64,000 bases of DNA from Psilocybe cubensis (GCA_017499595.2 CM039000.1:2108001-2172000), one strand, 5' to 3'; positions 32,101-64,000 are shown, counted from the first letter of the stretch. Notes: generated by a model not told the origin, from the sequence alone. Numbers and translations: made by a program.

Positions 32101-32914
32101 TGACGGATAAGAGAGATGGTATGGTACAGTTGTTCAATTACTATTACTCGAAACTGGGCAAGAAAAGGGCTTTGTTAGATATGGGCTTTCGCAAGTGGTT
32201 ATCACCACAGATGCCGCATTGTGATTGATGCATTAAATGCACCAGATGTCAGGGAGAGTGTCTTGCAACGGTATTGCTCAGAAAAATTGATTCCAATTGA
32301 TTTCTCCGTCGAGACACTCCCAAATATTTGGGGCTGAGAGTAACGCACCACGAGCAGAAGTACTTTATACTGTGACACTAGCGTCATAATACACATTTAG
32401 GGTAATTCCACATCCGAGTCTTTCCACATGGTAACGTGTTTAACACTAAATTGAAAAGTTTTCTGAATTTTATGCTATTGCAGTGACTCTAACTCTTCCT
32501 GCCCATAATGTGATGGGGTCATATCCAAGTTTAAAGACGTTTATTCCAAGCCAATCACTGAAGCCAGTTAATTCTTCAATGTCGAGGCTCGATGCACATT
32601 GACATGTATTTTTGCCTAATGCAGTGAGTCTCGCTGCGCCCGCAACAAATCAGCCAACGAAGCAGATCATGGCTTCTTGATATTATCCAATCCCTTTAAA
32701 CCCCAGGGTACGATTGTAAGTCCGGACGCGTATTTGCGTGTTTCGGTGGTAACACGGTCACGTGATTAATTAAACGCGTCAATTATCATGTCAGAAGCTT
32801 GATAATGCAAAGTTTTACCGGGAGATTCTCCGAGAAGTCAAAAGTGGAATACAATCAATTGTGAAGGAAGACAATGAGGAAATGCATGGAACATACACTG
32901 CGGGCTCCGATACA

Positions 32915-33296
32915 TGTTTGATGTCAAACATCGTCAATCAAACACATATTATGTAAGAAGACGATGTTTGATGTCAAACATAAGTTGTGTTTGCTGACAA
33001 ACAAGCATCAAACATAAGTTATGTTTGATAGGCATGTGATATCAAACACAACGTATGTTTGACGCCTGTTTGTCAAAGAACACGGGCTTGACAGAAAATC
33101 TGTCAAGTTCGCTGTAAGATAACAAACGTACATTGTGTTTGATAAATAGTGTTTGATTCCAAATATAACTCCTGTTTGATAATTTGTGCATGAAATCATC
33201 CGTATATTCTGTATGTTATCGACCATAAACATCAAACATAAGTTGTGTAAGAAATCAAACATAATATCTGTTTGAAATCAAACAGATTGTCAAACA
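32915..33296. repeat. Subterminal repeat array: 17 exact copies of TGTTTGA/TCAAACA in both orientations, plus variants
   Basis: Counted directly: 8 TGTTTGA and 9 TCAAACA, often paired as palindromes such as TGTTTGATGTCAAACA. Confidence 0.92.
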
Positions 33297-33318
33297 GACA
33301 TCGACACGCTCATCGTGC

Positions 33319-33383
33319 CGCTCAGCGCGCGCCTCCTCGCGCGATCAGCGCGCGCTTGACGCGCGATCGGCGCGCGTTGAGCG
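33319..33383. repeat. GC/CpG-rich imperfect palindrome, 65 bp
   Basis: cgctcagcgcgcgcc...ggcgcgcgttgagcg with inner tcgcgcg/cgcgcga and tca-gcgcgcgc-ttga arms. Confidence 0.85.
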
Positions 33384-33922
33384 ACACGCCCAGCGATTTT
33401 ACGGCTATTTTGGCGTCTCGGTGATAAGCGACACACCTCACCAACGCTACTTAGGCGCTTGTGTATTCAGCGACGAGAACACGCTCTTCATTCAATAACG
33501 CTGTATCAGTGACGCATGTTTATTCAGCGAGAAAAAACGTATTTTCGAGTGAAATATATGTATTTTTGGGGCTCGGGTGTGTCCTACTACCATACACATA
33601 AATTGACAAATGCTACACAGTCAAAGCTGCTTTTCTCCCTTCTTATTTCTAGAACCTGAGTCTCTATTTCACTGTAGTAGCAATGTATATACTCACATCA
33701 ATGTATTTTATTCGTTTGCCATCGTTTGCCATTGCCTTCTATGAATTGATGTCTCTCAGAACAACTTTCTCGCAGTCTCTTATCACTCACCACACTCCCA
33801 CTCACTCACCACACTCACTCACACTCACTCACCACACTCACCACACTCGCTCTCACTCGCTCAAACACATTCATTCATCGTCCTCGCTCATCACGCCCTC
33901 TATCAACATCGATATTCGTACC

Positions 33923-34466
33923 ATGTCCACAATAGTCTCCAACATCTTTTCCACCATCGTTTCCTTCGTCAACGGCATCAAATACGGATTCGCGTCGGGA
34001 TGCGAGATCGTGGAGTGGTTATGCACGTACGGAGGGCCCGCCTTCGGGGCGATAGCTCGCTACATCAACAAAAATAGCGAAGCGCCAGTTGTTCTGCGAA
34101 ATCGTAGCGGTATGCCAGTGAGTATTTGTAGCTTTGAACAGCGTCTTACCGCTCCTTTCAGGAGGAAAGTTGATCAGCGACATGGAGGCTCAACACTCAC
34201 CAGCCAACGACGCCGATTTCGAGGAACTCATCCGCGTTCGCCAGGAGATTAAAACCCTGAAAAAAATTCTCGACAATCGAAGCGCACGTACTCGGCCTGG
34301 TACATCGGAAGCGCACGAAATTCAGCTCGACCGCTTCGAACTTGAGCGCAAGAAAGTTCTCAACGATATCGCGATCGAGGCCCAAATACGTGCCACCTAC
34401 CCTGCGCGAGCCCTGTATCTCGCAATGTGCGAGACATACGATGTCGCTCCTGTCCGCACCGACTAG
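33923..34466 (+). CDS. Small two-exon uncharacterised protein with a coiled-coil C-terminal half
   Basis: MSTIVSNIF...VLRNRS|GGKLISDMEAQ...APVRTD* with a GTATGC...TTTCAG intron. A CACT/CACA-rich leader lies at 33783-33865. Confidence 0.6.
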
Positions 34467-34809
34467 GCGCCCCGGCGGGTTTTTCTTGTTGTTATCTTTT
34501 CTTCATTTTCTTGTTGCTTTCTTGTTGCTTTCTTGTTGCTTTCGGTTTATCGCTATCGCTTCGTATTATTGTACATATATCCCTGAATTTTACCATTTGA
34601 TTCGCTATATTTGTATCATACTCATTGAAGACTCATAATCTCATTTCTGAATAATAAAACTCCTTAACATTCGCGGACATCTGTGGCCTATGTTATTTCA
34701 TGAAGCTTGAAACAACATTTTTTTTATTACCAAACAAGCGTCGTCAGCACCTTTAGAGGCAAATTAACGCGCGTTTGCCGTTTGGATACCTGCTGCACCG
34801 GCACCTGCT

Positions 34810-35163
34810 GACTCAGTCCTGCCCTTGTCCCTGCTGCAGCTGACTCTGACTCTGTACCATGCGTATCGACGAGCTGCGCGACTGCGACGGCGCCGTGTTT
34901 GTCTCGTACCCTTCGCCATCTGTGCGGTCCGCGTCCGTCTGCGGCTTCTGGTAGGTATCCTGCTCCTGCTCGAGATCCTCCTCTGTGAACTCTCCCAGTA
35001 CGGGTTCCGTGTCCAGGAAGGTATCCTATTGAAAAAAAAAAGACTGTCAATGTCAATAAAAACACGCACATAGAGAAAGAAGTAAAAAAAAGAAAAGGAA
35101 AAAAAAAAGAGATAAAACACGCACCATCACCAAAAACAAATTCTTCTTATCATGGAAACTCCA
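34810..35163 (-). pseudogene. Remnant of an AGC-type protein kinase gene with the catalytic core deleted
   Basis: WSFHDKKNLFLVM (kinase subdomain IV-V-like, 35163-35125), then a GTGCGT...AATAG intron, then DTFLDTEPVL... resembling an AGC C-terminal tail. Confidence 0.5.
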
Positions 35164-36220
35164 CTCACAGCGGTCCTAACAGAAATCACACCACGCATGT
35201 CGTCAACACAAGCAACTCAGCAAGAAAGAGACGTCAATCTTACAGATGTTCTCCGGGGGCCACTACAATGCCAAAGAATTGAGCGTCTGCGGATGGGGCG
35301 AGAATGGATGCAGGACAATGGGCTAGCTATGGAACGTTTGGTATCAGTTACGCATGCCAGGAAAGCGAGACGCATCAGGCTCCGATTTCGGGTGTATGCG
35401 GATGCGCAGGACTTCAGGGCATACGCAAACAGCAGAGCGGCGATGACGGGTTCCACACATCGGGCACTGATAGAAACAAACAGCGCCAGATTCAGCGTAG
35501 CCTCCTGGAACTGCAACGGAGGACTCGCGGCATCAATCCATACGCCAATGTATAGGGATCTCGTACTATCTAATGATGTTACCTTCTTCCAGGAAACACA
35601 CATGGCGCCAGGGCAAGAGGATATTCTGGATCTACCTCGCGGTTTTCATCCAGTGGCACGATCGCGACCATGGCGGCACCCCCTAGGCGGCGTCACTGTA
35701 ATTATACGGGACACTGTAAAATATAGAATATGCGACGAGATCATGCACCCAGATATACTGGTCCTTGAGCTCCCATCCCTAATCCTAATCTGCTCGTATC
35801 TTGTGCCAGAGAACTCCAGATGGGAATCTTGGACGCATGTGGACCCTAAGACATGGCTGGGGGAGGCTATCGAATATTTGTGTCTTGCGATCCAAGGCAT
35901 ACATGATTATAGGCGACCTGAACGCGCGTATAGGCCTGCAACAAGCAGCGGGATCGCACTTAGTACGAGTGTCTCCAGATAATACCTGCATTGCTAGAGG
36001 GAATCGCCTACTGGAAATCATGGGGCAGAATTCTCTGCATGTCGTGAATGGGACACCAATCGACCGAACGCCGTTCCCACAGTGGACCTCCAGTCAGGCC
36101 AACGGAGGCCGCTCTGTCATTGACTACATCATCGTCTCGGAAGACGCGCTCCTGTCGTTGGAAGCCATGGATGGGTTGGAGGAAGAGTGGATGACCATGC
36201 AGGGATACATGTGGAGATGA
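35164..36220 (+). mobile_element. Non-LTR retrotransposon (LINE) 5' fragment with a frameshifted APE endonuclease domain
   Basis: VASWNCNGG, DVTFFQETHM, GGVTVII, ICSYLVP, then after a frameshift near 35880 IIGDLNARIG, RGNRLL, VVNGT, RSVIDYIIVS. Confidence 0.88.
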
Positions 36221-37054
36221 GATCTTCTCTCACTCTTGGGCTGATCGTCTCAATAACGCCGCTCACGCGTTCATAAACCGCGAACACGATCGCCTGCCCG
36301 GGTGCCACGCGCAGCACGCGGGGGTGATGCCCTTGTAGAATGACCGCACGCCCTCCATCTTCCACATATCTGCCGCGATCGCGAATATGCGCTGGAAGGA
36401 GGATTGGCCTGGAGTTGCTTTGGCTTTTTGTAGACCTGATATAATTGATTTGAGTAAGAGAGGCTAAGAAAGTGTAGTTAAAAAGGGACGTACGAGTTTT
36501 GATAGTGTCTATTGGTGCATTTGAGAACGGACCCATAGCTCCAGAGATAAGACCAATCATCATGTGTTGGTAGGATGGTAGCTCGACCAAGTCTGGCTGG
36601 TACTTATGCGCGAGCTTCTTGATTTCTTGGTACGCGGTGAAGTTGGCACCTAAGGTGGACACACAAGCCTTAAGAAAGGCGTTCTTCGGCTATTCACGAA
36701 TGAAGACGTACCCTGATTCGTAGCTTGTCTCAGTGGCGTCAAAGAGACACCACGATACAATGTCGAGATTCCTTCCTCACGAATGATGGTGTACACAGCA
36801 TGACCAGCATTACGGTACCGAGGCGCTTCAAGAGGATCGGCCAATGAATGTTGTTGAGCTTGCAGAGGAATCTTCACCACTTCCATGGGCGTCACGATGG
36901 CAACAGCTTCCGTCACTCCAGCCCCAAGACCGGCTATACGCAAGTAATTAAAAGATGACATCAGCTCAACACCTTCGCGGCAAGAGAAAAGAATTACATA
37001 CCAATGAAGATATTCCCAATACTCGTCTTCCCTGTTTGCTTATCGGCAAGCCGA
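36218..37054 (-). pseudogene. SFC1: Captured 5'-truncated mitochondrial succinate/fumarate carrier (SFC1-like) with introns retained
   Basis: GLGAGVTEAVAIVTPMEVVKI, ADPLEAPRYRNA, LYRGVSLT.LRQATNQG, GPFSNAPIDTIKTR, RVAPGQAIVF. It lacks the N-terminal third, has R>P and A>P changes in conserved motifs, and has a 1-nt deletion in GITPRV near 36322. Confidence 0.85.
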
Positions 37055-37339
37055 CGATGGTACATCTCCTCTCAACTTTTTAATAACCCTTGCAGTATGT
37101 TTTTCTCTGTCTATTATTTGGCAATACAATTAACACACGATAGACTTCGACGATGCCAGCGGGAACATCTGTGTCTATATCCTCCCCAAGTGGGATGATC
37201 AATCTTGACAAGGTACGGGGAATTCAGGCTCCAAGAAATGCTGAGGAAACGACACGACCCAGACATCGAGGAATGGTATGCCATTGACTACGAAAGTCTT
37301 GCAAATTACCCGCCTTAACTCAAGCATAGGTTTGGACGT

Positions 37340-37850
37340 CTTCGGCTGAAGGGCCCATGGGCTCATCCTATGCAGCGAGGTTGCACTGGTGGAACGCGCG
37401 CACCTGGTCAAGGGCATGCACCGACGACAGTGTGCAGAACTCCACGGTTGTGGAAGACCACAAAGTCATCTTCGCGCCAGTCGTGTGGATACACCAGCTG
37501 CTCCAAAATTCAGCTTCGAACAAAAAAGCGCAGACAATATGCGAACTTACAGAAGGAGCGATCGCAGGTCATTGCTACGACTCCTGGAACAGGTGCAGAT
37601 CAAGTGTCTGCGACGAATACTGGGTTTGGGTCCGAGGTCGATAACGGCAGTTCTTTATTCTGAAACAGGAGTACTTCCCATTAAATATAGGCGGTTAATC
37701 CTAGTACTACGTTACGACATCCCTCCCCGGAGAGCGATAGTTAGGATGGTTGAGAGACCTAGTCCGGGCACTGGATCTACTTCCCTGCCCGGCGCAAGTA
37801 ACAGCAAGAGAACTGTGGGAATCGGAGGGCACTGCGAAGGTGATCAACGC
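37340..37850 (+). mobile_element. LINE 3' fragment (region C-terminal to RT), degenerate
   Basis: LLEQVQIKCLRRILGLGPRSITAVLYSETGVLPIKYRRLILVLRY and WLRDLVRALDLLP resemble the post-RT region of fungal LINEs. No RT core is present. Confidence 0.7.
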
Positions 37851-38399
37851 ATCTACGCCCGCTCCTCCCGATCCGATCCCGATCCTCCCGCTCCAGCATC
37901 CGCAACCGCAACAGCATCCGCATCAGTGTCCGTATACACACTAATCACATTCTCTGCCTACACATATACACATTTCTTAATCAGATAAAATCAAACTCCC
38001 ACAACGAAAGAGAAGTGACGTACCATCTTCATCTTCATCCCCACCTTCCCCTTCATCCGTCGAATTCGAATGCGAAACGGGAAACACCAGAAACAGAGCT
38101 CAAAGCAGGCGATGGCGCTCTCTCCCCTGCACCTCCTTGTTCGGAACCCTCACCCGAACCCTCAACGACCCAACTACGACTCACAGACCCGTTGTCCGAT
38201 ACAAACGACGACGATATCTCCTGCGTGTCGTGCGAGATGGAAATAGACTCTGACTCTGTCCCTGAAAGCGAAAGGTACGGCGAGTGCAAAGAAACAGGCG
38301 AACGGGTACAACGACGCGGAATGCAACGACGCGGCGCGCGGCACGAACACGGGTGCGGGCGGCGAGAGTGTGAACGGTGCGGGCGCTGGTGTGGGTGAT

Positions 38400-39500
38400 G
38401 GTGAGCAGGTGCGTGAAGCGTTTGATGAGGCTGGGGCTGAGCCTGAGCCTGTTGTGGAGGCGTTTGACGAGGCTGGGGCGGAGGTGGAGTGGAAGGGTAC
38501 GGTGCAAGTGGGTACACACTCCTCTTATTCGCCGGTGCTTGTGCTGGTGTATTCCCATTCCCAATCCCCAACACCTGCTGCTCCCTATTCCCTTTACCCA
38601 CCCGCGACCGTGCCTGCAACTCCCGCTTCACCGCATCCACATCCATCGCGCGCAGCACCTGCTCCGAGAGCGTCGGGAGCAGCGCGAGGAGGATGTTGCG
38701 ATGTCTTCGTGTGTTTGGGTGAATTGAGTGCGGAGGCTTGTAGGTTGTAGTAAGTTAAATAAGTGTAGGGGAAGGGAGGGAAAAGAGGAAAAGGGGTGTT
38801 AGTTGTGTTTAGAAAATTAGAGATAAGAATGGGAATAGAATAGGATAAAAAAGAATGGGATACAATAAAAGCAAAGAAAATAAAAGTAAAAGCAAAAGCC
38901 CATCCGACGGTTCTTCTATCCATCCTGCTATCCGTCCTGAACCATCTATCCACCCGTATCAATCAACCCGTACATGCATGCATCGGCCAAAACGATCTAT
39001 GCGAAGATGAAGACGAAGGCGAAGGATACACCCTCGAACAAACAACAACATGAACAAGAACCAGAACCGTGCTCGTTCAAAGTACCTCTGCAAGATGGAT
39101 GGAATAGAGAACCTCCGAAACTGGAATCTGTCCATTCCACCGAAATCTATCCAAATAAACCCACAAAAAAAACAATCCAAAAAACATACTCTCTAAAAAC
39201 CACACTCCAAAAACAAAAAACCCCAAAAACCAGAAAAGAAAGAAAGAAAGAAATAAAAAAATAAAATAAAAAAACACTCACACATCCCTCGCCTGTTCCT
39301 CGGCGTCCATCTTCTGCCTCACCTCATCAAGCCGCACGCGCATGAACCCGCGCGCGTCCTATAGGCCGCCGATGATGGTGGTCGTTTTGAGTGCATTATT
39401 CAACTTTGCCAGATGTTGCTGACGTTGCGAGCTAACATTCTCCACCTCCATTTCATCCTCTTCGATAATACCGCCGGCCACACGACCATGAGCGTCCTCG
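38400..39500 (-). pseudogene. Captured fragment of an unidentified host gene with introns, a stop and a frameshift
   Basis: GGL*DARGFMRVRLDEVRQKMDAEEQARD|T-rich intron(s)|LRTQFTQTHEDI/RNILLALLPTLSEQVLRAMDVDAVKRELQARSRV. Confidence 0.45.
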
Positions 39501-39549
39501 CCTTCCGGGTGATCAATAGTCCTCTTTCTCTCTGTCTGTCGAGATGACC

Positions 39550-40292
39550 CCATCCCTATCAAGCGCGTCAGTGGACAACGCAGTCGACGCTAGATTCGTC
39601 ATGGACGGCGCGGCAGACCACCCATTCACATCCCCTCCAATACTCCCACTAACACTCCAACTAAGCGTCATCGCACCAAACGAGCCAAACGGATCCGGGC
39701 CCTACTTGGCAGGAGCCATCACAAGCGGTGTATTCCCCCCTTTCTTCCCGATCCCAATGCCCATACTCATCCCCATCCCCTTGCCACCCCCAGGCGACGC
39801 CAGCCGCGAAAGCGTGTTCAAAAACGTCGACTTTCGTTTCTTCTCCTTCCCCTTCTTCTGCTGCGCGAGGGGCAGACCGGCGGGGTCGATGGGCAGCGAT
39901 GGGATTTTGAGGCCCGGGTGCGTACTGCGCAGTTTCACGTCGAGTTCGATGAGCTCCGCGGCGGTGCGTATGAGCGTGAGGTTGTGTGTGGGTGCTGGTG
40001 TGTGCAGTGTCGTGTTTGTTATCACAGGTGATGGTGGTCGGTGCATGGGAGTAGGTGCGCGGCGGCCGTGGTGGTGGTGGTAGAGATAGAAAGATCGGCG
40101 CGGGTGGTGGTGGTGGTGGTGGTGGTGGTGGTGGTGGTGGTGGTGGTGGTGGTGAGAGTCGACGAGCGGGGGTTGGATTCGACGATGTCGGCAGCGTGGA
40201 TAGCGACGCGGACGATGCAGCGGATGAAGACGACGACGATGACGTCGGTGTGGGCGGGACGAAGTGAATGGTTAAAGTAGACGCAGACATCA
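39550..40292 (-). pseudogene. Captured N-terminal fragment of a host gene, possibly the PX-like N-terminus of the same AGC kinase
   Basis: HRPPSP...LTLIRTAAELIELDVKL...IPSLPIDP...KKRKSTFLNTLSRLASP, with broken frames. Family identity is from memory only. Confidence 0.4.
40103..40153. repeat. (GGT)17 microsatellite
   Basis: Seen directly. Confidence 0.95.
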
Positions 40293-40759
40293 TACAGTGG
40301 GGAAAACCAAAAGCGCCACGATGAGATGATGAGATGATGGGAGTGTACAGGTTCGTGTCTAGTGCTTTCATTTCGTCTTGATTTCGTGTTTGGGTTTGGG
40401 TTTATAAGTCGGAATTCGAGTTTGTCTGGTGGGTGTTGTGTAAGATATGCTATGCTATGGTGTGATATGTGGTGTGTAACAGTGTAAGATGTTCAGAGCG
40501 TACTGCAAGTCGGTGTGAGGTAAGATGAGCTGAGGCGCTAGTGTCAGCGTCGGTGTAGGCGTAGGGTGTAACCGTAGAACACAAACTGGGTTGGCAAACC
40601 AAAAGCCAATGTGAAGGTCGATAGTCGATAAACGGTGTTGGTGTAGGTGTAAGTGGGCAGTGGGTATACCACGCCATTCTCCCCGCTTCAGATCGAAAGG
40701 CAAAGTCAAACAAAGAGTCAACAGTCGAATCGAAAACCCGCAAAAAGGGGTTGGTGGTG

Positions 40760-41775
40760 GTGGTAGCACCCCACTGCACAACTTTGCCTGGTCTTCCTCG
40801 TCGTCTTCGTCGTCTTTTTCTTCTTCGAAATGAGGCCGTCGGAGAGGATGTGGACGTCGATGTCTACGCCCGTTTCCATGCCCATGTCCCTCATTGTCGA
40901 CTTCATCGTCTTCATGGAAATCGTCCTCATCATCCTCTGTATCGTCCGATTCGCTGGGACTTACTAACCCAGGCTCGTCCCCGTCCTGCGCCACTGTAAC
41001 ATGTTGGTTGAATTTTTTCTTCCTCGCTTGCTCTAATTCAAATTGTACATCCTCCTGGTCCGTTTCTCCCTGGTTTTCATCGCGTACCGTATGATGTGGG
41101 TTGAAGCTTTTGGCATTCATCTTTTTCTTCCTATCCCTAAGAGCGGCTATTTGGGCGTCTGCTCGCCATCTGTTGGGGTCCACGGCGATGTTTGTGTCCA
41201 GATTCTGACGCATTGCCTCCATACGTAGAGCCTCGATCTGACGCTCATTGAAAGCGGCGCGTTCCCTCCACGCTCAAGGTTCAGGCTGGCAGGGTCGAGC
41301 GGCGCAAAATGGCGGACGAGCCTGGGTTGATGTTGCAGTTGTGGTTGCGGTGGAGGCGCGTGAACGGGGGGCAGATCGGGGAGCTCTTCCTCTTCGAATA
41401 CGCCCAGGCGAGCATTCTGCGACATCCATTCACGGAGGAGGAAGACGGCAACGAAGATGAGTACAATGAGCGATGCGATGATCAGGCCGGTGAATATGTC
41501 TGCCGAGGGCGCTAACCATGCCGGATGTGAAGAAACCTTGGAGAAAAAATGCTGTTGGATGGCGGCCCAGGGGCTTCGTAGCGAATTCTATCGATAGAGG
41601 AAGCTATCAGAAGTGGATATTAGATTGAGATCCCGGATGAGTACGTACGCGGATTCTCCCATGGAAAAGACGTCCACACTGTTATGCATGGCAATATTCC
41701 TAGCCAGATTGTAGCAACAGCTATAATACGAACAACAGGGAGAAAAATAATTGTTGTAAAAGCCGCCGAATTACC
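40760..41775 (-). pseudogene. DOA10: Captured internal fragment of the ERAD E3 ligase Doa10/SSM4 (MARCH6-like)
   Basis: IRRLLQQLFFSLLFVL*/VATIWLGILPCITVWT/FSMGES...SADIFTGLIIASLIVLIFVAVFLLREWMSQNARLGVFEEEE. No RING-CH domain, several frameshifts. Confidence 0.75.
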
Positions 41776-41855
41776 CGTCTAACGTCACTGTCCGCAGTCC
41801 CTAAGCCTAAGTCGTAAGTAAGAGGGAAAGGATACAAAAAATACCCTCGAAAAAT

Positions 41856-42058
41856 CTCGCATGCCCGAGGCATGGTGTTCATGGTATCATCTGGAATACA
41901 ACTTCCAGATCGCAGTTTGATGTAAGCCAATTGGACAGGAATGCTGCTTAAGCCGTCCGTTCGAGTAGTATTTGGCCAGATCACTGAGGAGACCATACGC
42001 CAACCTCACTAGAGAATCAGAGCGTTCCTCGTCGAAGGCAGCGGTGAACAAGCTCCAA
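41856..42058 (-). pseudogene. KAP95: Captured C-terminal fragment of importin beta-1 (Kap95)
   Basis: Across frameshifts it reads LELVHRCL/DEERSDSLVRLAYGLLSDLAKYYSNGRLKQ/AFLSNWLTS/LRSGSCIPDDTMNTMPRACE, matching the last HEAT repeats (GLLGDLA...TMRWARE). Confidence 0.7.
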
Positions 42059-42260
42059 CTTAAGTAGTCGAGCACGCCAAAGATGTCGCTGAGCGTCCTA
42101 GTGAACTGCGTCGTGATGGGCACGACTTTTGCCTGGCGAGGTGACGCACATGGACGACAATGCTCTCGTCTTTTCTGTGCCGCTCCGCCGCGAAACGGAG
42201 GTGAAACAGTTGTAGAAGTAGCCTAAGTGAAGTGGCAGCCAACCAGAGATGTCAGTAGGA

Positions 42261-43536
42261 ATCGTTAGTGTTCGGGATAGGAGATGGGCTATACTATGTA
42301 AGTTACTACAGAAAATTAGGTAGACAGAACGAAACATACCTGTGTAGAACAAGAGGAAGGAAATGGTGAAACGAACGACTTGAGTGAGAATCGTGTGCGT
42401 CTAATCGCATGGTTAGCAAACGGCGGGTACACTGGAGTTGCGACTTACCAGACATGCTTCGAAACTTTTGCGATGTCTTGTTCGCTGACCTGTATCTGCG
42501 CTGAATGACTGACCCAATATACAACACTGTGCAGAAAATTGTGTTACTTACGGCGAGCGTAGAGATCTCATACGTGCTTAACATCTGTGTTGGCACTTCG
42601 ATTACACCTCACGCACAATATCATTCGGTCCCCATTTCGCTCCCTGTAGTAGTATTTGTATTATTTACATGGTACACTACGCTAGACTGCCTACATGGAT
42701 AGCAGCGCTACTCGGTCTATATGTGCTACTTCACCCGCTAGATGAGCATGGTTGGAACAGAAGAAGAAGAAAGCGTGAGAATATGGCCAGCACGCCAACA
42801 AGTACCGCAGAAGTTCGATGCCGCTCATGCCGTCGCCAAATTGGTGATGCGCGTGATTGGTGGCACGGCATCAGCGGCATCAAACTTCTGTCCTGTATCA
42901 TGGCGATTTTGTGACGGTGTGACGCCTTTCCACCTCTCTCTCAACACTCACTCCTATGAAGCACGTCGTACGTAGAGATGGTTCGCATACGAGCTTACTG
43001 TAGTAGTAGCACTTTAGTGTAGACTCTAATACCATAAACTTAGCTAGCTGCGTACTCTAGTAATACAATTTTAGTTCAAGTGACATAGACCCGGCTTGGA
43101 AGGGCAGAGGAAATAGTCGGGTGAGCGACACAGAACGAGGAGGAACTACAATTCATTTGGATAGTGAATTACGCAGAAACATAGGTGCGAATCGTATTTT
43201 TATTACTATCAGGCAGGAAACACAAGCCAAGAACACCTTCTACAGCACACCCGCCGCCTCTTCGCCTGCCAGACCCGTATTCGAGCGTCACAAACATAGG
43301 TGAGGAATCATCTTTGCTATCAGTGCAGGAAACATATTCTACAGCACATGTGCCGCCTCATTGCTTTACAGACCTCACTTATTCAACGACGCACCCACCT
43401 ACATTCAAGAATTGAACGTTGAATGCTGCCATAACTTTATGTTTTGTACGACGCTGCCTACTGTAAGCACCCGATCTGCGAGGTACCCTCTTTGCAGGTT
43501 GCCGTTTTAATTTGGATTTCACGATATCGGGACTTG
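42261..43536 (-). repeat. Module R copy 1, left arm of the 1276-bp near-identical inverted repeat
   Basis: Reverse complement of 59814-61089 (coordinates sum to 103350, mirrored ORFs are identical). I spotted only two mismatches, at ~42267 and ~43474. Weaker similarity continues to ~43586. Confidence 0.97.
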
Positions 43537-44169
43537 TGTAGGATGTGCACATGGCTTCCGTCGACTCTCCTGCTAATGCAACTATATGCAAGTCTATTCT
43601 CATCTGACACGAGTAACGTAAATATCTCATTTACCCCCCCCCCCCCCCCCGTTGCTCTATTGAACCCCACAATTGGGATGACAGCCAGCGCTTTCACATG
43701 TTATTTACAACATCCTGATTTAATCAGGGGCTGCTAGAATTTTCGCTCATTCCGCACCTCGACTCGAGCCATATTTTTGAGAAGTAAGTTCAACCTTACA
43801 CGCGTGTAGGCAACGCTCGTGTCCTTTCTGCCTCCGTACTAGTCTCTTGTTTGGTAAAGACCAATTTTTCCATTGCTCCTCTTGCGTGTTATCATTCTGT
43901 CCTCGTTTCATAGGGACTACATCTAGTATGTAGACTACATGTTCGACGCCGCTCATGCCGTCGCTTGATTGGTGATTGCGCCAGCATCACATGTCGCCCA
44001 ATTATCTTATCTTATCGCTGTCAGAATAGACAAAACAGCAAGAGATCCCTTAAGACTGCCGGCGCAGCGCGATGGCAGGCGCAGAGCGAGACCTGTACTC
44101 GGATAATCCAAGGTGGCTTTACAATACGGATTGGTTTAACGGGCAGCCTATGATCAGATCAGAGTGGTG

Positions 44170-45570
44170 AAAGTGTCAAAATGAGTGAAGGCGTTAACAG
44201 CCGTGATTCATACGAGTTCTGAGAACACACCCCCGAGATTGTGTGGTTCAGCAAAGAAACAAAAAGATGATTGAGATATCTGGATATGAAGAGCTGTTTG
44301 AATTGCACCAATGCTAACGGAAGGCCACAACATATGTGCTTGTGGGACTCGATGAGAGCCATGAGCAATTCACATAAGATAAACACAGTCCGGCTCGATA
44401 TGGTGCAATCCAATTAAAACAGCACCTGCAAAGGGGGTACCTCCTAGACAGAATGCTTATCGTAAGAAGCATCGCAGAAAAAAATATGGCAGCGTTCTGT
44501 GAGTGTGGCGTCGTTTATTAAGTGACGTCTGTCAGGCGACGAGGCGGCGCATATAGAATATGTTTTCCATACTAGTGATAGCAAGATGATTCTCACCTAT
44601 GTTTCTGTGTAATTATGTGACCTCGAATGAAGGACTGGTGGGAGAAGAGGCGGCGCGTATGCTAGAACATGTTTTTGGTTTATCTTCTCTGTACTGATAG
44701 CAAAAGATGATTCTCACCTATGCTTTTGCATAATTCACCAGCACATGAATTGTCATGTTCACCGGTCTTTGAATTAAAGTTATTATGGTGTTAAAATCTA
44801 CGTTAAAGTATCCCTACCGCTAAGCTAAATATTTGAATCGAATTTACATTCGACCCGCCGCATTGGAGAGTGGGGGTTGTCAGAGAGGAAGAAAGGCGTC
44901 ACACCGTCACAAAATCGCCCTGATACAGCACAGAAGTTCGATGCCGCTCAAGCCGTCGCAACATTGGTGATGTGCGTGATTGGTGGCACGGCATGAGCGG
45001 CATCGAACTTCTGCGGTACATGTTGGAGAGCTGGACATATTCCCACGGTTTTCCCTTCTTTCCTGCGCACCATCCTGGCCACGACGTTCGGCGGGGCTGG
45101 TGAACCTGAACCTGTCAAAGCAGCACGTTGAGATTGAGTAGCGTAGCAATTTATGTACATGGACTAGCGTAGTGTGCAATGTATATAGTACTAGATCAGA
45201 GGAAATATTCTGCTACGAGATGAGGACGGTGACGCGTCAGAGGCATGGGGATCATATAGACTCTACCACCCGGTGCGATGTCTAGCGTACGCCCTGGTTT
45301 TGTAGGAGGTATGATGCTGCACATTTGGTCAGTTATCCACACAGATCCACCTTTAGTGAACAGAACATCTCTTGGTTGGTGAGTCGCAACTCCAGTCTAC
45401 CCTTCAATAGCAAAGCACACTGACTGCTTGCGGACCGTCCCGACCGTCCCAAGGAAAATTACAGACTGCTTGCTGAGCGTCCCTGGAAAAACTACACTCA
45501 CTTATTTCTTACCGAAGGTGCTCGTTGCACCGTCTGCTTCGTCTTGCTTCACTTAGGTATATTCGGTACA
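44170..45570 (+). repeat. Module R copy 2, diverged; inverted relative to copy 1 and direct relative to copy 3
   Basis: Collinear blocks shared with copy 3: acctgcaaag.gggtacctc, gatagcaa.gatgatt.ctcacctatg (twice), aaaggcgtcacaccgtcacaaaatcgcc, the 83-nt hairpin and gt.agtcgcaactccagt. Confidence 0.85.
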
Positions 45571-46647: not shown

Positions 46648-47231
46648 GGTATATGTCGAGGAAAGATTGTGCGTTTTTCTTTTCATTCACTATTTGTAGT
46701 TTCGTATTCGTCGCTCAATCATCCCCTTTGTTTATTCTATGTAACGTCTCGCTCTTCCGCAGACACTCATCCTCAGTGTGCACGTCAAATCTCAGTGCAC
46801 GTCAAATACGCACCAATTGTTTCGCAAAGTCGCTCTGCTAGTGTCAAAGATTGTTTGATCGATATCTTCTCACCGTAGGGGTAACCATTGATCGCTACCT
46901 ATCATTCTTTCATCAATATCTATTTCAGGGAGGGCTCAAGAAAGCATCATTTGTCTCTACAATGAGTGAAAACCCCAATGACAATATTATCAGACATTGA
47001 GCCTTAGTTATACAAAATGAGCCTTAGTTCCAATATGAATACGGTTTGGCAAAAACGTGACAAAAAGGCGACACGACTCAAAGGGAGATGTTATCTTTGA
47101 CGAGTTATCTGTGACTCGTCAATGGCCAGTGCCAAGGGTGTCACAATGACTTCCGGCGGCGCTGGCGGTAAAGTACTTAAAGAGCAGGAGTTATCACCAG
47201 TCGTAAACGATTCAAACCATCAGCACCCGCC

Positions 47232-52200: not shown

Positions 52201-53043
52201 AATATAGCGTAGCAAGAAACAACCATAAGGTTGATCATCTGCATCGCGTCAATTATCCATGGGGGTAGCCAAGGCATACTGTATGCATAGGGAAGGAAGG
52301 GAAGGAAGTGGTGCCCTAGGGTCGATAGTTGATAAATAGTTCATCGAATACAAAGTGAAAAATAAACATGCTCGCTCACTTGAATCGTATAAATTAGGTA
52401 CGCTATCCTGAATAGAAACTCGCTGGCGAGATCTCTTCGTTTGCCTCTCCTTCCATGTTGCCTCTACACGGTCTACATCTTCATTAAGTCGCTCGATATT
52501 TTGGTGTGCATCATGTCGCAAAGATTTGATCGAGGCTTCCTTGCGCAAAGGACCGGATTTCGTAAAGTCTAAATCTCTCGATGCGTTGGAATTAAGAGCT
52601 CGTACTTCATGGCAAAGTTGAATTGCCTTATCAATTTCCCCATTGCTGAAATATTTCTCTCCTGAGATGTCAATGGTGTTGATTTGTTGGGCACGAAGTC
52701 TGGTATTGTCTAGAATATCTGCAATCAGAGCCACGATTTTTTTCTTCTGTTCGTGCTTGTACTGCACTTCCTTTTCCTTGATCGTCTCGGTGTCCGGGTC
52801 CTGAACAGATAAAAGTTGCATTGCTTTCTCCAAGGTGGTTTCGACCTTCTCCATGGCCCTTTGCTGCTCAAGGATCGCCCGTGATTCAAGATTCCTCTTC
52901 ATCTGACCCACGCTTTCCTCGTGTTGGTGCTTTTTATATGTAGATGGCGACAATTGAACACCTGGCTGTCCTGTGACAGGATCGCGTTTCGCGCCGCACC
53001 CATGCACAGTGCACAGGCAAAACTTGGCTTTCCAAACCGGCAT
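49210..53043 (-). CDS. CACTA/CMC-EnSpm (Tnp2/Transposase_21-like) DDE transposase, about 4 exons, apparently intact
   Basis: YAACPKC, GFDFFNP (D), GIIPGPNEPS, RPIVD, IADLPAARKAGGF (D), FCSMC (CxxC), VDPMHNLFLG, KLKSDQW, PNHHMAMH, YGPVHGWWTFPFERMIG (E). The four ORF pieces splice in frame. Confidence 0.93.
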
Positions 53044-55036: not shown

Positions 55037-58000
55037 TCACAGTATCTTTTTCTTGTACTGGTCTTTTAACTGAGTCATAACATTGGAGTTGAGGTCTCTG
55101 TCTTTCTTGGACTCGGGAACTGAACACAGGAAATCCGTGCTGAGTATAAATCGCTCGCCAGTTAAAACGTCTACACGATCTTTAGATCGGGTGACTACAG
55201 CGACCAAGACAGTTGGATTATCCGAGGTGCCTTCATGATGAATGCGACGAACGAATTTCCCGCAATGTTCCCCCTTGATAACCACTAGAGGCCCATTGTC
55301 ATGTATTCGATTTGCATACTTCGGAGTGACCCAAGCGGGGTCCACCATAGTCCATGAACTGTACTTTTTGCACCTGAGTACGAGGTTGTTTGCATCCCAA
55401 ACCGTTGAGGCGACTAATGTTTTATTGCTGAACTGTCCGCCGTTGACTACCACATTCAGGCTGATGTCCACCAGTTTGGGGTTTAAGAGAACATGTTCGC
55501 ACACAGAAGAGGAAGTCGTATGACAGTTTGTTTCAGATGAGGAGGAAACAGATGTAGAGACGTCTGATAACGCAAGACTTGTTGGCGAATGAGCAGTTGG
55601 GTCAGGTGTCCTTGAGGAGGGGTCCCAAGCTGGAGTGATAGATTGCGGTGTACCGATGGGTGTCCTTGAGGAAGGATCCCAGGCTGGAGTTGCAGTGGGT
55701 TCTGAGTACATCGGTGTGCCGCTCGCTGACGCAATCGTTTGCGGTACGCCAGGGAGAACGCGGACGTGCTTCATGGAAGACTTAGGTATAGGACGGAAAA
55801 ATTTTGGCCCAGGATCAAGGAAAAGAACGAGCTCATTGAACGTCCTTGCGTACAAGTTAGACAGAGGGTACATGCAATGACAACACACTTACGAAAGTTC
55901 GACGACATCGTCATAGTCCACAACGATTGTTTGGAACGGTGCAAAGGGATTAAAACGGGTGAGTTGAATAACGAGCTGCAGTCCGGCGTTGTCTGTATGA
56001 TGAAGGACGTCTTTGATTCGTCCAGTCTCACCCTTGCGTGGGTGAAGATGCTTCTGTATAATGACCTCTAAACCAGTCCATGGGTGTCTTAAAAACTTGG
56101 TGTGGACTGGGTCTGACTCCGACAATAATGTCACATCGACAAGAGGTAGGGGCTCAGTAAATGAAGTGTCCAAGAGATTGACGTGTACCGCAAAATGCTG
56201 TTGAAAGGTATAGCCACGTTAAGAGAAAAACCGGTGAATATGTCAAGCTGCAAATTTACTCACTTCCACAATCTCAACCTTGTTATCATCTCCTACCCCA
56301 GAATTAAACTGGTTAGATGCTGCTGTTGTACTGACCACAGCGCCCTGGTTGTACGACTCCTGAGCTGCTGTTGGTTTTCCTACTCCTGTGACACACGAAC
56401 TCCCTCCCGGCATCGACATTTCTTCTTCATCTAACGTTGCTGCTGATTCATCCAAAGTTAGAGCGATATCCGAATGCACCATTATACCCCCTGGCATCAT
56501 TTGCGCTTCTACCGCCGTCCCCAGATCTGTCTCCGCCGAACCTTTTCTCAGATCATCGTTCCCTGTCGGCACGGGATATTGTTCTTTTCCGTTGGTGGGC
56601 GTCGAAGATGTTTCAGCATTTGTTTCCACAATGGAAATGCGACCATGCACCGAACTTTTCGTTATTAGTGCATGGTCTCCATGGATTCCAACGACCCAAC
56701 CTCTGTGATCGAAATAGGGGCCGCTCACAACTCGAACGAATTGCCCGATTTTTGGTGACTTGAGAATGTCTAGCCATGTTCCCCTAACACTGTAGCGGAT
56801 TTCACGTTCACCTTCGATTGTTGATTGTTCTGCTTCAACGTCGTATGTGTCCAGCTTTTTCAGCACTGCAGGTTCCCACTTTGCAGACCGATTCGCAACG
56901 TCGGGTGTACGAAAAAGAACCTCCTCTTCCAGTCCTAAGCACCATTCCCGAGGACGTGGCATACGCGCTCGCATTATGTCGGGATGATTGGTGCTCCTAA
57001 ACATGGAGAAGTGGGAATACGGAATATCCATGACGGAATTTGCGATGGAGGTATAGTCGAAATCCTTTTCCAACAGTCCATGGTCAAACTTGAGAAGTCC
57101 AAGCGTGTATGATCCATCCGCATTGCGAATAATGGGAGTAGAAATGAGTTTGCGGGCTTCTTCAGGGTCGAAAAGTTTTGCTGGGGGTACTAGTACCGAT
57201 GACTTTCTCTTTTGTGACTTTGCAGATTGCGAATTTAGCCGAGGAATGAGAAGAACCTGAGCGCCCCAGGAAAAAGTCGCTGAAATCAGTCCAACGTCTC
57301 CTTTGTATATGCCTTTCTTAACCAAAACCCAGGTCCCAACCTCAAAATCCTTCTTGACATCCCTCATCGTAAGAAGTTCGTGCTGATGGTTCCGATCCAC
57401 TATTTCGCGCTTGACTCCAAGGTGGTTACGAAGGATTCCGGGCGTGGACAAGAGCAGATTCACGAGGGCTGGATCCATGATACCTTCAACGTAGATACTT
57501 CCGCGTATAGAGCCGCGAGTAAATGCGGAACGAATATGGTGGATCTCCCTTGCGGTCTGGAGAAGGGATAGGACAGCTGCATCCTCAGAGCCGATCTGCA
57601 AAAGTTGATAGAAAAATAATCAAGGGATAGGTATTCAGACTTACCCGACATCCAACCCTCCAGAGAGGATAGTCATTCTCAAGCGGAAGACGCGCAATCT
57701 TCTCCTGGAGCATGGTTATCCTATCTTCCTCCTCCAAACGTATAACCGGACGTGGTTGACGAGGGCCCTTTGCTTGAGCCTCCAGGCGAGCCAGTAGTTG
57801 GTTAAATGAATCCTCCTCGCTGTCATCTTCTGGCCTATGGAACGCCATAGAGCCTATGTGATCTTTCCCGTCCACTTCCGCTCCGTCGTTAATGAAGGCA
57901 TCTGTAAAGACAGTCAAATCAAGTCTATCGCAACATTCTGAACAGCTCGCCTTCAAGGTCCCGTTCTGCAGACGTAAGCTGCTCATCGTCAGAAAGCTCT

Positions 58001-58123
58001 CCATCATCAGCTACCTGTGCCTCCGTGTCCAGAAATTGGCGGACGTTCCTCATAACCTAGGGAGAAAAAATCATGAGTATCAAGATGCTTTGAACAGAAA
58101 TCAAGCAAGCCTACCCGCTTCAT
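55037..58123 (-). CDS. Spt5/NusG-like transcription elongation factor paralogue (acidic N-terminus, NGN, multiple KOW, CTR-like repeats), about 6 exons, ~930 aa
   Basis: RQFLDTEAQVADD...FIND; LWRVGCR|IGSED...IRSAFTRGSIRGSIYVEG; GTWVLVKKGIYKGDVG..LLIPRL..PPAKLFD; KIGQFVRVVSGPY; HPRKGETGRIKDV; TPAWDPSSRTP twice; VVIKGEHCGKFV. The exons splice in frame. Confidence 0.88.
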
Positions 58124-59709: not shown

Positions 59710-59813
59710 TGAGACTGGTGCCGCTCGAATACCTGATAGAAAAAAGACGGAGCCAATCTATAGTTGCATAAGCAGGAGACTCGACGGGAGCCATGTGCAA
59801 ATCCTGTATATTC

Positions 59814-61089
59814 CAAGTCCCGATATCGTGAAATCCAAATTAAAACGGCAACCTGCAAAGAGGGTACCTCGCAGACCGGGTGCTTACAGTAGGCAGCGTC
59901 GTACAAAACATAAAGTTATGGCAGCATTCAACGTTCAATTCTTGAATGTAGGTGGGTGCGTCGTTGAATAAGTGAGGTCTGTAAAGCAATGAGGCGGCAC
60001 ATGTGCTGTAGAATATGTTTCCTGCACTGATAGCAAAGATGATTCCTCACCTATGTTTGTGACGCTCGAATACGGGTCTGGCAGGCGAAGAGGCGGCGGG
60101 TGTGCTGTAGAAGGTGTTCTTGGCTTGTGTTTCCTGCCTGATAGTAATAAAAATACGATTCGCACCTATGTTTCTGCGTAATTCACTATCCAAATGAATT
60201 GTAGTTCCTCCTCGTTCTGTGTCGCTCACCCGACTATTTCCTCTGCCCTTCCAAGCCGGGTCTATGTCACTTGAACTAAAATTGTATTACTAGAGTACGC
60301 AGCTAGCTAAGTTTATGGTATTAGAGTCTACACTAAAGTGCTACTACTACAGTAAGCTCGTATGCGAACCATCTCTACGTACGACGTGCTTCATAGGAGT
60401 GAGTGTTGAGAGAGAGGTGGAAAGGCGTCACACCGTCACAAAATCGCCATGATACAGGACAGAAGTTTGATGCCGCTGATGCCGTGCCACCAATCACGCG
60501 CATCACCAATTTGGCGACGGCATGAGCGGCATCGAACTTCTGCGGTACTTGTTGGCGTGCTGGCCATATTCTCACGCTTTCTTCTTCTTCTGTTCCAACC
60601 ATGCTCATCTAGCGGGTGAAGTAGCACATATAGACCGAGTAGCGCTGCTATCCATGTAGGCAGTCTAGCGTAGTGTACCATGTAAATAATACAAATACTA
60701 CTACAGGGAGCGAAATGGGGACCGAATGATATTGTGCGTGAGGTGTAATCGAAGTGCCAACACAGATGTTAAGCACGTATGAGATCTCTACGCTCGCCGT
60801 AAGTAACACAATTTTCTGCACAGTGTTGTATATTGGGTCAGTCATTCAGCGCAGATACAGGTCAGCGAACAAGACATCGCAAAAGTTTCGAAGCATGTCT
60901 GGTAAGTCGCAACTCCAGTGTACCCGCCGTTTGCTAACCATGCGATTAGACGCACACGATTCTCACTCAAGTCGTTCGTTTCACCATTTCCTTCCTCTTG
61001 TTCTACACAGGTATGTTTCGTTCTGTCTACCTAATTTTCTGTAGTAACTTACATAGTATAGCCCATCTCCTATCCCGAACACCAACGAT
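59814..61089 (+). repeat. Module R copy 3, right arm of the 1276-bp inverted repeat
   Basis: Reverse complement of 42261-43536. Confidence 0.97.
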
Positions 61090-61129
61090 CCGCACTATGC
61101 GCTATTAAGCAAACAAGATCCCGGACTTG

Positions 61130-61604: not shown

Positions 61605-61884
61605 GTACGTGGCTGAACGAAGACGGCTGCGCACAGTACTCACTCCTCACACAGAGTTGCAACGCCCGTCCTTTGCTGTGTCCTCTCCATTCCATCGGTT
61701 GCATCAACGTTTTAGGGCAAACCATGACATATACAGAAGGTCATCATTTCGCGAGAGTACGTTTTTCGTCTTCTGTCTCTCTTTCTTAAGCACCAGGTTT
61801 TGATCTACAACTTCTCCTTAGCACGCTATACTTACGCCCGAGATACTAGCCATCATCCGCAAGGGCGGGCCCTCCGCAGAATGG

Positions 61885-61980
61885 ACATCTGGAGGGTGAA
61901 GTACCACATACAGACCGAAAAAGCGCAGCAATAGTCTACTGTAGCGTACAACGTAAACAACAGTACTACGGGGGACTTTT
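61885..61980 (+). repeat. Module R copy 5, a short diverged fragment
   Basis: catctggagggtgaagtaccacatacagaccga resembles catctagcgggtgaagtagcacatatagaccga at 60606. Confidence 0.65.
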
Positions 61981-62105
61981 CTGCTATGAAATGACGACCG
62001 AATGCTATCGTGCAAGTGTGACCAAAGATAACACGAAGTCTACTAACGCAGACAGTCTTTGTGCACCGCTGGTCTGTGGATTCGTTGTCGGTGCTTTCAT
62101 GCAGG

Positions 62106-62671
62106 CTAATGCTTTACAAAAAACAGGTTTTTCGGGATTTTGAATGGCCTGGTTTGATTCACTGATTGAATGAAACTAGGGGTTGTTAGTGTCGTCAAAC
62201 TTCATATTGGCATCCGGCCTCACCTTTTGGTCGCAAAATCAGCTAAAATTCTGTCGCGCCCCCCGAGGTTTACCAATTCTTGGTGTTTTCCTTTCTTAAA
62301 GACGACAATATCACCCTTCCAATTGCGCACTCTCCATCTCCGAATGCTTCTGTTAGGGGGGAGCCTGCAATGGTTCTTGACAAAGACATGAAACTGCGCA
62401 ATCTTCCCTCTATTCGAAATTGAAACAATAGCATCGTGGATGTATGGCTGCAGGCGTTTCCCTCCCATGACCAGGTCGAGACGGGGGCTTCTGCCGCTTG
62501 TGTTCTGAAGGGTGTGTATCGCTTTGTTCACGGGTCTTTCTGCGTGCGCGCCATAGTAGCGCGCTCTTAATGATAGCGAGGTGTCCTGGAATCCTTAAGA
62601 AGAACGTCAAGTATCCTCGCGAAATTGCTCACCCTAGTCCGTGGGATATATTTAGCAAGTGCAGAAACCAT
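62106..62671 (-). CDS. Small basic uncharacterised protein, 3 exons (QPYIHD / GDIVV / VNLGGRD motifs)
   Basis: MVSALAKYIPRTR|DTSLSLRARYYG...QPYIHDAIV...FHVFVKNHCRLPPN...KGDIVVFKKG...VNLGGRDRILADFATK|SFIQ...KH* splices in frame. Confidence 0.75.
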
Positions 62672-63007
62672 AGTTTGGCGGGACTGAATGACGGTAGAGG
62701 GTGAATGTGGGTGTATAGGGTTGAAAGAGAGGTTGAAGGTACAGGACCAGTGAGTTTTAACATAATCATTCACGACGCCTTTGATACAAAGAAGTTGTTT
62801 GGCCCAGGTTTCCATCAAAAGCACTCGAATGGGCATGCGCTCGCTTCCTTCAATCCGCGCCGGTTCGGCGCGGCGCATTTAACAAAGGAAGATACGGTGT
62901 GTTCACTTGCTCGTCCTTTGACAAAGAACCTGGCATGGCTTATACTTGATCGTCAGTATTTCCATCTTGTAAGAGCGCCACTCCCAATCATCACACCAGA
63001 TCCAAGC

Positions 63008-64000
63008 ATGGACGACGCTTCGATGGAAAATCTCTCTCTGCCGGGAGCCTTCAACAGCTCCCCTACAGAGCAAATGGATATCACCTCCAGCGACGACGTC
63101 ACCCGCAATCATCCAGGACCGTCCCAGACTCCCCAATCCCCTACAGAGCAAATGGATATCACCTCCAGCGACGACGACGCCCGCAATCATCCAGGACCGT
63201 CCCAGACTCCCCAATTACAGTCCCAGATTCTCAAACCACAAGAATCGGGCAAGCGAAAAAGGAGTGATCATGAAGAGATATCGTCGAGAAAGTTAATTGC
63301 AGTCGAGCCTGAGTATCTTCAAGAACTCGAGTTCGCGGTAACTCACTTCAATTGCCGTCTCAAATTTTAACTCAACATACCGTTGTATTCAAGGTTGATG
63401 AGTTGACTAAGAAGCTCAAATCGAAGGATAAAGAAATAAAGCGCCTTCAGAGCATAGAGCCGAGCGTCAACGATTTGAAAGATGCTGAAATTCGACACCT
63501 TCGCGTTGTAGAGCAAAAGGTTGAGACTTTGATTATTGGAAAGATATATGTACTAATAGTAATGTATCATCCAGATATCCAAAGAGAAATCGGCGTCTGA
63601 TGGGGCATATAAGACCTTACAATCCCAATTCGAAGACTATAAACGAGTACGTTTCCCAGGCTTCATGTTATCGTACCTGCGTTTAAGCATCGAACAGGAC
63701 GTGGATCGCCAACATAAAGAAGCATCCCGTGCTAAAGAGCACGAAATGTCTGAGGTATGTAGTCTACCAAAAATCAGAAGCATCAGCCTCTCATTGCTAG
63801 CTGTTTTCAAGCTGGAAGCAAAGTTCAAACAACAAATCGAAGAACTCCAAATTCATCATGACCGTACGGTGGAGGAATTAAACAAAAAGGTTGAATCCCA
63901 GTCTCTTCAGATTTCATCTCTGGTGGAAGACAGTCTTGAAGAATCAGAAACTGCGAAAATATTGCTAAATGAACCCGATGGAGAGGGGTCCAATATCTTG
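63008..64000 (+). CDS. Coiled-coil protein, multi-exon, runs off the window end
   Basis: MDDASMENL...GKRKR (NLS-like)...ELEFA|VDELTKKLKSKDKEIKRLQ..., with GT-AG introns. Confidence 0.65.
63059..63215 (+). repeat. In-frame 78-bp tandem duplication
   Basis: SPTEQMDITSSDD..RNHPGPSQTPQ is encoded twice with only a few substitutions. Confidence 0.95.

Follow-up and report, generated by a model that had tools for sequence, protein, structure and literature searches.

We analysed a 64,000-nucleotide stretch of one strand of the Psilocybe cubensis genome (GCA_017499595.2 CM039000.1:2108001-2172000; hereafter the window, with positions counted from its first letter) and found that the DNA from position 32896 onward is probably one copy of a very large transposon of the CACTA/EnSpm type, supported over at least 28 kb and most likely running past the end of the window, a reading to which we give a probability of about 0.7. 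Cut-and-paste transposons moved by DDE enzymes are generally regarded as small elements of a few kb with one or two genes. The first-pass annotation of this DNA had claimed a giant, cargo-carrying, multi-gene element driven by a DDE transposase, and the end at 32896, the sequencing depth and a set of related loci all point to a very large, multi-gene and multi-copy element of the CACTA/EnSpm type, but the term "cargo" overstated the case. We regard the element as a new form of a known type that has recently been amplified, and whose apparent cargo is made up partly of genes belonging to the family and partly of gene debris.

The left end of the element could be placed to the base. The window has a single occurrence of CACTGCGGGCTCCGATA, on the + strand at 32896-32912, where the terminus reads CACTGCGGG (CACTG type). 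Exact TCAAACA/TGTTTGA heptamers number 27 in the window when both strands are counted, while whole-window shuffles gave a mean of 12.3 TCAAACA sites and a maximum of 19, and 17 of the 27 lie in both orientations within 32915-33296, which bears out the earlier description of a CACTG followed by 17 subterminal heptamers. These repeats are presumed to be transposase binding sites, and analogous clusters are found in relatives of the element.

Ten public sequencing runs contain the whole stretch or part of it, and four of these (X3, X5, X10 and X11) were mapped onto 31500-51499, with X11 taken as raw reads summed over both directions, X3 taken as contig depth, and read-depth coverage ending at 51.5 kb. 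In all four runs, multi-copy DNA starts to the base at the CACTG of 32896 and shows the end of a mobile element. The reads and contigs that arrive at this point from the left differ in sequence: 597 X11 reads agree with one another at only 0.41, four X3 contigs and one X5 contig have different flanks at 32896, and three X10 contigs do so at 32893. The loose ends considered here are the best-supported ones from the mapping, with 336 further entries ranking below them, and agreement among those before 32896 is low (0.41-0.64), as many flanks would produce. Since many different flanks meet at 32896, this position is the end of a transposon inserted at many sites, and thus a true mobile-element end. 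The consensus of these flanks finishes with either TAT or ATA (TAT in X3, X5 and X11), and the flank of the copy in the window is ATA.

Depth in X11 also falls from 1136 at 32934 to 482 at 32979, so that the first 60-80 bases are about twice as abundant as the subterminal region of the type seen in the window, and 320 X11 reads match the terminus up to 32976 before switching to one other sequence that bears TGTTTGA-type motifs (agreement 0.93). We infer that these reads represent right ends of the same family, in which case 32896..32976 (+), at the start of which CACTGCGGGCTCCGATA stands, would be a probable inverted terminal repeat of about 80 bp, as the sequence, the read ends and the depth indicate. 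Clusters of G>A or C>T changes mark a minority (about 10%) of the copies in the X11 reads, at 32963-33053 and 36655-36736, and substitutions of these two kinds account for 107 of the 178 variable positions in this run; they suggest that cytosine deamination, or a process like repeat-induced point mutation, has acted on some copies.

To the left of 32896 lie host genes (SPRY, PAP2, glycosyl hydrolase 63 and class-V aminotransferase). The immediate flank, 31500-32895, is single-copy; X3 and X11 contain it, while X5 and X10 lack it almost entirely, with a mean word depth of 1.2-3.0, and the DNA adjoining the insertion itself varies between strains. We also considered whether X5, X6 and X10, in which about half of 32000-34000 is present, contain an empty site, and this was ruled out for X5 and X10, which carry the element and lack the left flank.

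Sequencing depth shows that the DNA inside the terminus is repeated out to at least 51.5 kb. While the single-copy left flank has a depth of 28-31 in X11 and 19.9 in X3, the bins across 33.5-42.2 kb reach 250-388 in X11 and 138-212 in X3 (about 10 times the left flank), and those across 43.5-51.5 kb reach 143-192 and 84-112 (about five times). Between these two regions, the bins of 42.2-43.5 kb, which hold one arm of a long internal inverted repeat, rise to 605 and 496 in X11 and to 294-336 in X3. All of 32896-51499 is multi-copy in the four runs, as is a junction at 61.1 kb. The copies are almost identical to one another, in keeping with a recent burst: in X3, a unitig of 10,988 nt (depth 88.8) spans 44990-51499 and about 4.5 kb more with only 3 letters different, and another (depth 163.8), over 41300-42297, links the left part of the element, which we call segment A (32896..42253), to the left arm. 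Some copies have internal deletions of segment A, joining 35374 to 38145 in 13 X11 reads and 35164 to 39417 in one X10 contig.

A second count of copies came from a gene resembling Spt5 at 55040..58056 (-), which encodes 948 aa in 3 exons by its exon map and is 100% identical to an annotated protein (P0019). The cluster of this protein at 90% identity has 10 members, namely five NCBI proteins and five UniRef entries, the latter 99.6-99.9% identical to one another, and the five NCBI proteins are encoded on five different contigs (3.05-4.68 Mb) of one assembly. Five dispersed copies per assembly are an independent count that agrees with the approximately fivefold depth of 43.5-51.5 kb.

The repeat whose left arm lies at 42.2-43.5 kb organizes the interior of the element. 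Self-comparison placed the left arm, which is non-coding, at 42254..43586 (+), with 1283 nt matching at 100% and 1331 nt at 99.0%; the right arm lies at 59759..61096 (-), as defined by self-comparison and by loose ends in the reads, and a third, diverged copy with about 70-75% identity lies at 44346..45417 (-). Loose ends at 42261 and 43536 match the right arm's own flanks (agreement 0.99), and among the loose ends listed, the arms always stand between segment A (32896-42253) and the sequence from 61097. We rejected the idea that the arms are the ends of a separate transposase-bearing transposon, as the listed loose ends at their outer edges show only the window's two flanks (0.99), and also the idea that they are protein-coding, as no reading frame is conserved among the three copies. 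Each arm copy contains a near-palindromic module of 83 nt (42808-42890, 44931-45013 and 60460-60542), and partial copies of it occur at 43941 and 58466.

From the depths and the numbers of loose ends, we estimate that the junction of segment A with an arm is present about 10 times, that of an arm with the 61.1-kb sequence about 10-11 times, that with the 43.5-kb sequence about 5 times and that with the 59.8-kb sequence about 11 times, and that in about 5 copies the sequence departs at 42944 from that shown here and continues with DNA that the window lacks. By this arithmetic on depth, the simplest reading is that about 10 elements share both outer parts, with about half of them carrying the block that holds the transposase and the others a different middle, as expected of a family with autonomous and derivative members.

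The transposase itself is of the expected kind. The first-pass annotation had named a Tnp2-type transposase, and the open reading frame (ORF) at 50604-52340 (-) matches PF02992 at 34.9 bits (cut-off 28.6 bits), the sole transposase match among the ORFs scanned with Pfam (52 in the window, of which 42 lie within 33.6-64 kb). This match is part of a Tnp2/CACTA-type DDE transposase gene of four open exons at 49237..53019 (-), whose exons span residues 83-1361 of a 1364-aa homologue. D242, D338, C357, C360, D430 and H433 are invariant in an alignment of nine sequences, and C357 and C360 form a CxxC motif after the second D. The closest named relatives, at 38-50% identity, come from Gymnopilus, Termitomyces and Galerina, which, together with a 100% match of the ORF at 56243-57619 (-) to a Psilocybe cubensis protein, agrees with the original assignment of the sequence to a mushroom-forming fungus.

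To determine which of these features belong together, we turned to metagenome contigs scanned with the transposase alignment, which yielded 79 loci and 548,503 bases, many of the loci being short. CACTGCTGGC occurs 7 times in these bases, where our own arithmetic gives about 1 expected, and five of the seven are right ends that lie 1.86-2.25 kb past the transposase match (L021, L024, L040, L043 and L058), oriented relative to the gene as they are here. These ends are of the ...CAGTG type and have the flanks ata, ata, tat, agt and tca. Another locus, L045, carries CACTGCTGGCTCCGA, which agrees at 14 positions with bases 1-15 of the terminus in the window. The relatives have subterminal heptamers of their own, TGCAGAA inside the L021 end and GAAACAC in L041, where positions 57-483 form a 430-bp miniature CACTG element with inverted ends matching at 37 of 40 positions, GAAACAC repeats, and the flanks TTA and GTA. 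Given this shared end type and these lineage-specific heptamers, the end type belongs to this transposase lineage. The miniature element adjoins a truncated transposase-gene relative and possibly lies within it. The loose pattern CACTGCNGG was not enriched in the related loci (10 matches, about 17 expected), enrichment being confined to the longer shared sequence, and a generic search of these loci for CAC...GTG inverted pairs returned mostly interior parts of longer inverted repeats. L012 and L047 have nearly the same layout of several nested long inverted repeats around their transposase relative (for example 1290-1590 with 17696-18005), so that long inverted repeats in the interior may be characteristic of the family.

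Several companion genes recur beside the transposase in the same loci. A gene for a WD40-like (beta-propeller-like) protein at 47416..49061 (+), for which Pfam gave sub-threshold hints of the WD40 type, has homologues in 14 of the 79 loci; orf46114, at 45819..46686 (-), has them in three (L012, L047 and L001); and orf62220, at 62220..62878 (-), has them in six. The region of orf46114, which lies 3 kb from the intact transposase gene, also resembles the C-terminal residues 1049-1237 of P0004, a transposase homologue. In L001, the order of the transposase, the WD40-like gene on the opposite strand and orf46114 is the same as in the window. At 63008..64000 (+), the exon map shows the first exons of a gene for a 1578-aa coiled-coil protein (P0152) that runs off the window, and the C-terminal 250 residues of this protein have homologues in 5 of the 79 loci, each time 1-2.5 kb upstream of the transposase. 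Since some relatives share the end type and others carry homologues of the WD40-like gene, orf62220 and the coiled-coil gene, everything from the terminus and the transposase to the genes at 64 kb belongs to one family. A further ORF in the transposase block or beyond has a weak RING-like match. The earlier annotation had counted at least six intact-looking spliced genes; gene models were confirmed for the transposase, the Spt5-like gene and the start of the coiled-coil gene. Exon 1 of the coiled-coil gene contains an in-frame tandem duplication of 78 nt at 63059-63215 (97% identity) that repeats the motif TEQMDITSSDD.

Several results weigh against taking all of this as one element. No right terminus, target-site duplication or empty site was seen before the window ended: the reverse complement of the terminus is not present in the window at up to 3 mismatches, as the first-pass annotation had expected; short-word alignment of the terminal 400 bp with the rest of the window gave only chance matches of at most 16 nt, and no terminus in 61.1-64.0 kb; and neither the second type of end sequence found in the reads nor the variant that diverges at 42944 occurs in the window. 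Since the second-type end is absent, the right end of this copy lies beyond 64000 or is missing. The support for 51.5-64 kb is indirect, coming from the 61.1-kb junction, the protein copy counts and the homologues in relatives, and the 90% cluster of the coiled-coil protein has one member, so that its gene could be single-copy. The family is not uniform, as copy numbers fall into two classes (about 10 and about 5) and a variant diverges at 42944, and with about 99% identity between the two arms, short reads are unable to establish that every copy links segment A, the arms and the part designated B in the same way; the arms may also have rarer flanks beyond those of the best-supported loose ends. 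Lastly, the terminus lies about 2 kb from the main exon of the transposase in five relatives, as opposed to 17.7 kb here, and thus this copy may be a composite of nested family members.

These points bear most directly on the possibility that the region is a composite repeat block, in which a CACTA end with its mosaic, an arm-bounded transposase block and further genes are nested side by side and have been copied by segmental duplication or ectopic recombination instead of by whole transposition. Such a block would account for the two copy-number classes, the divergence at 42944, the difference in spacing between the terminus and the transposase, and the lack of a right end in the window. However, the multi-copy DNA begins at the CACTG terminus to the base and with many flanks, the listed loose ends of the arms show only the window's two flanks at an agreement of 0.99, the Spt5-like copies are found on five different large contigs, and the near-identity of the copies fits a recent burst. 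We consider this explanation unlikely.

We also weighed whether the copy is truncated or rearranged, such that the multi-copy part stops at about 61.2-63.0 kb, the right end has been lost, and the coiled-coil gene is simply a neighbour. In agreement with this, the 90% cluster has one member for the coiled-coil protein and ten for the Spt5-like protein, unitigs of X3 and X10 end 62 and 51 nt past the arm, and 61.1-64.0 kb contains no terminus. Nevertheless, unitig breaks are as common within segment A, and the size of the cluster is a poor measure of copy number because the coiled-coil protein is missing from the NCBI annotation. In addition, orf62220 (6 of 79 loci) and the C-terminal domain of the coiled-coil protein (5 of 79) have homologues beside the transposase, and orf62220 is linked to the Spt5-like gene in Psilocybe cyanescens. 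Loss of the right end in this manner is thus quite improbable. An assembly artefact, in which repeats were mis-joined at the arms of about 1.3 kb, whose 99% identity over 1331 nt can mislead assemblers, is most improbable, given that all four arm junctions appear exactly as in the window in independent runs, that the order of the transposase, the WD40-like gene and orf46114 matches L001, and that the order of orf62220 followed by the Spt5-like gene matches a P. cyanescens gene model.

Read as a single very large transposon, the element would have a simple anatomy. On the strand of the transposase, the coiled-coil gene would come first, followed by orf62220, the right arm, the Spt5-like gene, the transposase and the WD40-like gene, and then by orf46114, the left arm, 9.4 kb of old captured fragments, the subterminal repeats and the terminus. 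The DDE transposase would bind the TCAAACA repeats near both ends, cut at the CACTG termini and paste the element into AT-rich targets of three bases (hence flanks of ATA or TAT), while copy number could rise through repair or through replication timing.

The product of the Spt5-like gene contains an Spt5-NGN domain (24.7 bits, cut-off 22.4 bits) followed by a KOW domain (31.8 bits, cut-off 22.3 bits). Identity to a second P. cubensis protein is 73%, falling to 38-40% for P. cyanescens and about 31% for Panaeolus, and because it is so diverged between close species, its sequence suggests that it is not the conserved host Spt5. In a P. cyanescens protein (P0021), residues 13-117 are 50% identical to orf62220 and the remainder is Spt5-like; an orf62220-like start fused to an Spt5-like body indicates that the two also lie side by side, and in this order, in another species. 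We found no NGN/KOW gene in the 79 related loci, many of which are short, so that its absence there means little, and no paper listed by full-text literature searches describes a transposon-borne Spt5 relative.

Bacterial mobile elements carry NusG paralogues. One role that can be guessed at for the Spt5-like protein is to assist RNA polymerase II along this long element or to act against silencing of it. A bolder proposal, which we put forward tentatively and consider rather unlikely as a whole, is that an active CACTA element of more than 30 kb is spreading in P. cubensis with an Spt5/NusG-type factor of its own, kept since before P. cubensis and P. cyanescens split and acting specifically on the element, whether by driving RNA polymerase II or by countering silencing. 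If this is true, eukaryotes would have in this factor a counterpart of the NusG paralogues on bacterial mobile elements. In either form, the gene would connect transposons with transcription elongation or silencing in a way that can be tested.

Plant En/Spm (CACTA) elements have CACTA/G termini, subterminal repeats in both orientations, a Tnp2-family transposase and more than one gene, and plant CACTA elements are known to capture fragments of host genes. The P. cubensis element shares, at its left end, the CACTA/G-type terminus, and also the subterminal repeats in both orientations, the PF02992 transposase and the possession of more than one gene, but differs in being fungal, in its size of at least 28-31 kb, in its probable terminal repeat of about 80 bp and in its long internal inverted repeats, and its companion genes (WD40-like, orf62220, coiled-coil and Spt5-like) are unlike TnpA.

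Among elements described elsewhere, CNIRT6 of Cryptococcus neoformans belongs to the CACTA-Mirage-Chapaev group, has CACTG ends and one large transposase gene, and has been shown to move (PMC12810828); its gene annotation covers about 6.9 kb, and the portion of the account used here mentions no multi-gene cargo (PMC12810828). Both elements are basidiomycete with a CACTG end, and by description the one in P. cubensis is several times larger. The enlarged En/Spm families of the red alga Chondrus crispus are reported as CACTA elements of 16-20 kb with 4-5 ORFs instead of 1-2 (PMC6431247); as far as the descriptions can be compared, the P. cubensis element is larger, comes from another kingdom and holds about 9 kb of gene fragments. 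In Kojima 2025, fungal EnSpm elements have CAC..GTG ends and a 3-bp duplication, while Plavaka A/B elements end in TGT..ACA or CATCA..TGATG, and both are elements of Agaricomycetes, some with an extra TET/JBP gene (PMC12730594). On these descriptions, the P. cubensis element falls in the same broad transposase clade as Plavaka, but its CACTG end is of the EnSpm type and unlike the Plavaka termini, and none of the 52 ORFs scanned matches the TET/JBP family.

Starships carry a tyrosine recombinase "captain" gene at one end. The transposase of KDZ (Kyakuja/Dileera/Zisupton) elements has a CxC domain. KDZ elements are described as having a KDZ transposase, 8-bp duplications and a length of about 9-11 kb (PMC12810828). 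Like both, the P. cubensis element is a large fungal mobile element with genes beyond the mobility enzyme, but its transposase is of PF02992. No recombinase family matched among the 42 ORFs scanned in 33.6-64 kb (shorter ORFs fell outside the scan), and no KDZ transposase was found among the ORFs scanned, PF02992 being the sole transposase match. The earlier comparison with Starships as carriers of genes useful to the host found no support, with no evidence of such cargo in the window, and the likeness is one of size only. No paper listed by full-text literature searches describes a giant CACTA element in Psilocybe.

A CACTA-type element of more than 28 kb, with about 5-10 near-identical copies on different chromosomes, would show how far a DDE enzyme can stretch, and the conserved WD40-like, orf62220 and coiled-coil genes would define a multi-gene lineage of fungal CACTA elements. 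P. cubensis strains are widely sequenced, so that polymorphism for excision and insertion is directly testable. For annotation, the ten entries named "Transcription elongation factor SPT5", along with the carrier and peroxin pieces in segment A, are best read as transposon genes or debris and not as host genes.

Segment A (strand not assigned; about 8-10 copies by depth) is 9.4 kb long and consists of low-complexity ORFs intermixed with diverged gene fragments. Here the first-pass annotation was right that no intact housekeeping gene is present, as the Peroxin-3, carrier and endonuclease pieces are all fragments, and much of what it had called cargo proved to be either family-core genes or diverged fragments of this kind. 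An endonuclease/exonuclease/phosphatase-like sequence runs in two frames across 35116..36220 (+), with matches below the cut-off to PF03372 (23.1 and 21 bits) and PF14529 (24.4 bits), and is possibly derived from the endonuclease of a long interspersed nuclear element (LINE). Within it, the ORF at 35152-35979 corresponds to an annotated protein, the only one on record among ten ORFs guessed from start to stop. A fragment of a succinate/fumarate-type mitochondrial carrier lies at 36127..37065 (-), with 2 of the 3 repeats by Mito_carr matches and an annotated protein of 262 aa (P0032); among the matches listed, its identity to carriers from other species is 51-63%, and at this level it is old debris and not a fresh copy of a host gene. 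At 38053..38754 (-), a Peroxin-3 fragment (PF04882, 29.7 bits, covering only profile positions 63-142 of 458) is followed by low-complexity sequence.

None of the segment A ORFs tested had a homologue in any of the 79 related loci, an absence that means little given how many of the loci are short. We had also considered the ORF at 37350-37988 as the C-terminus of a LINE reverse transcriptase on the strength of a motif, and this was unsupported, with no Pfam match and Atlas scores of at most 0.85. At 40103-40154, a perfect (GGT)17 microsatellite falls within low-complexity ORFs of this segment, and the X3 reads are apparently cut there.

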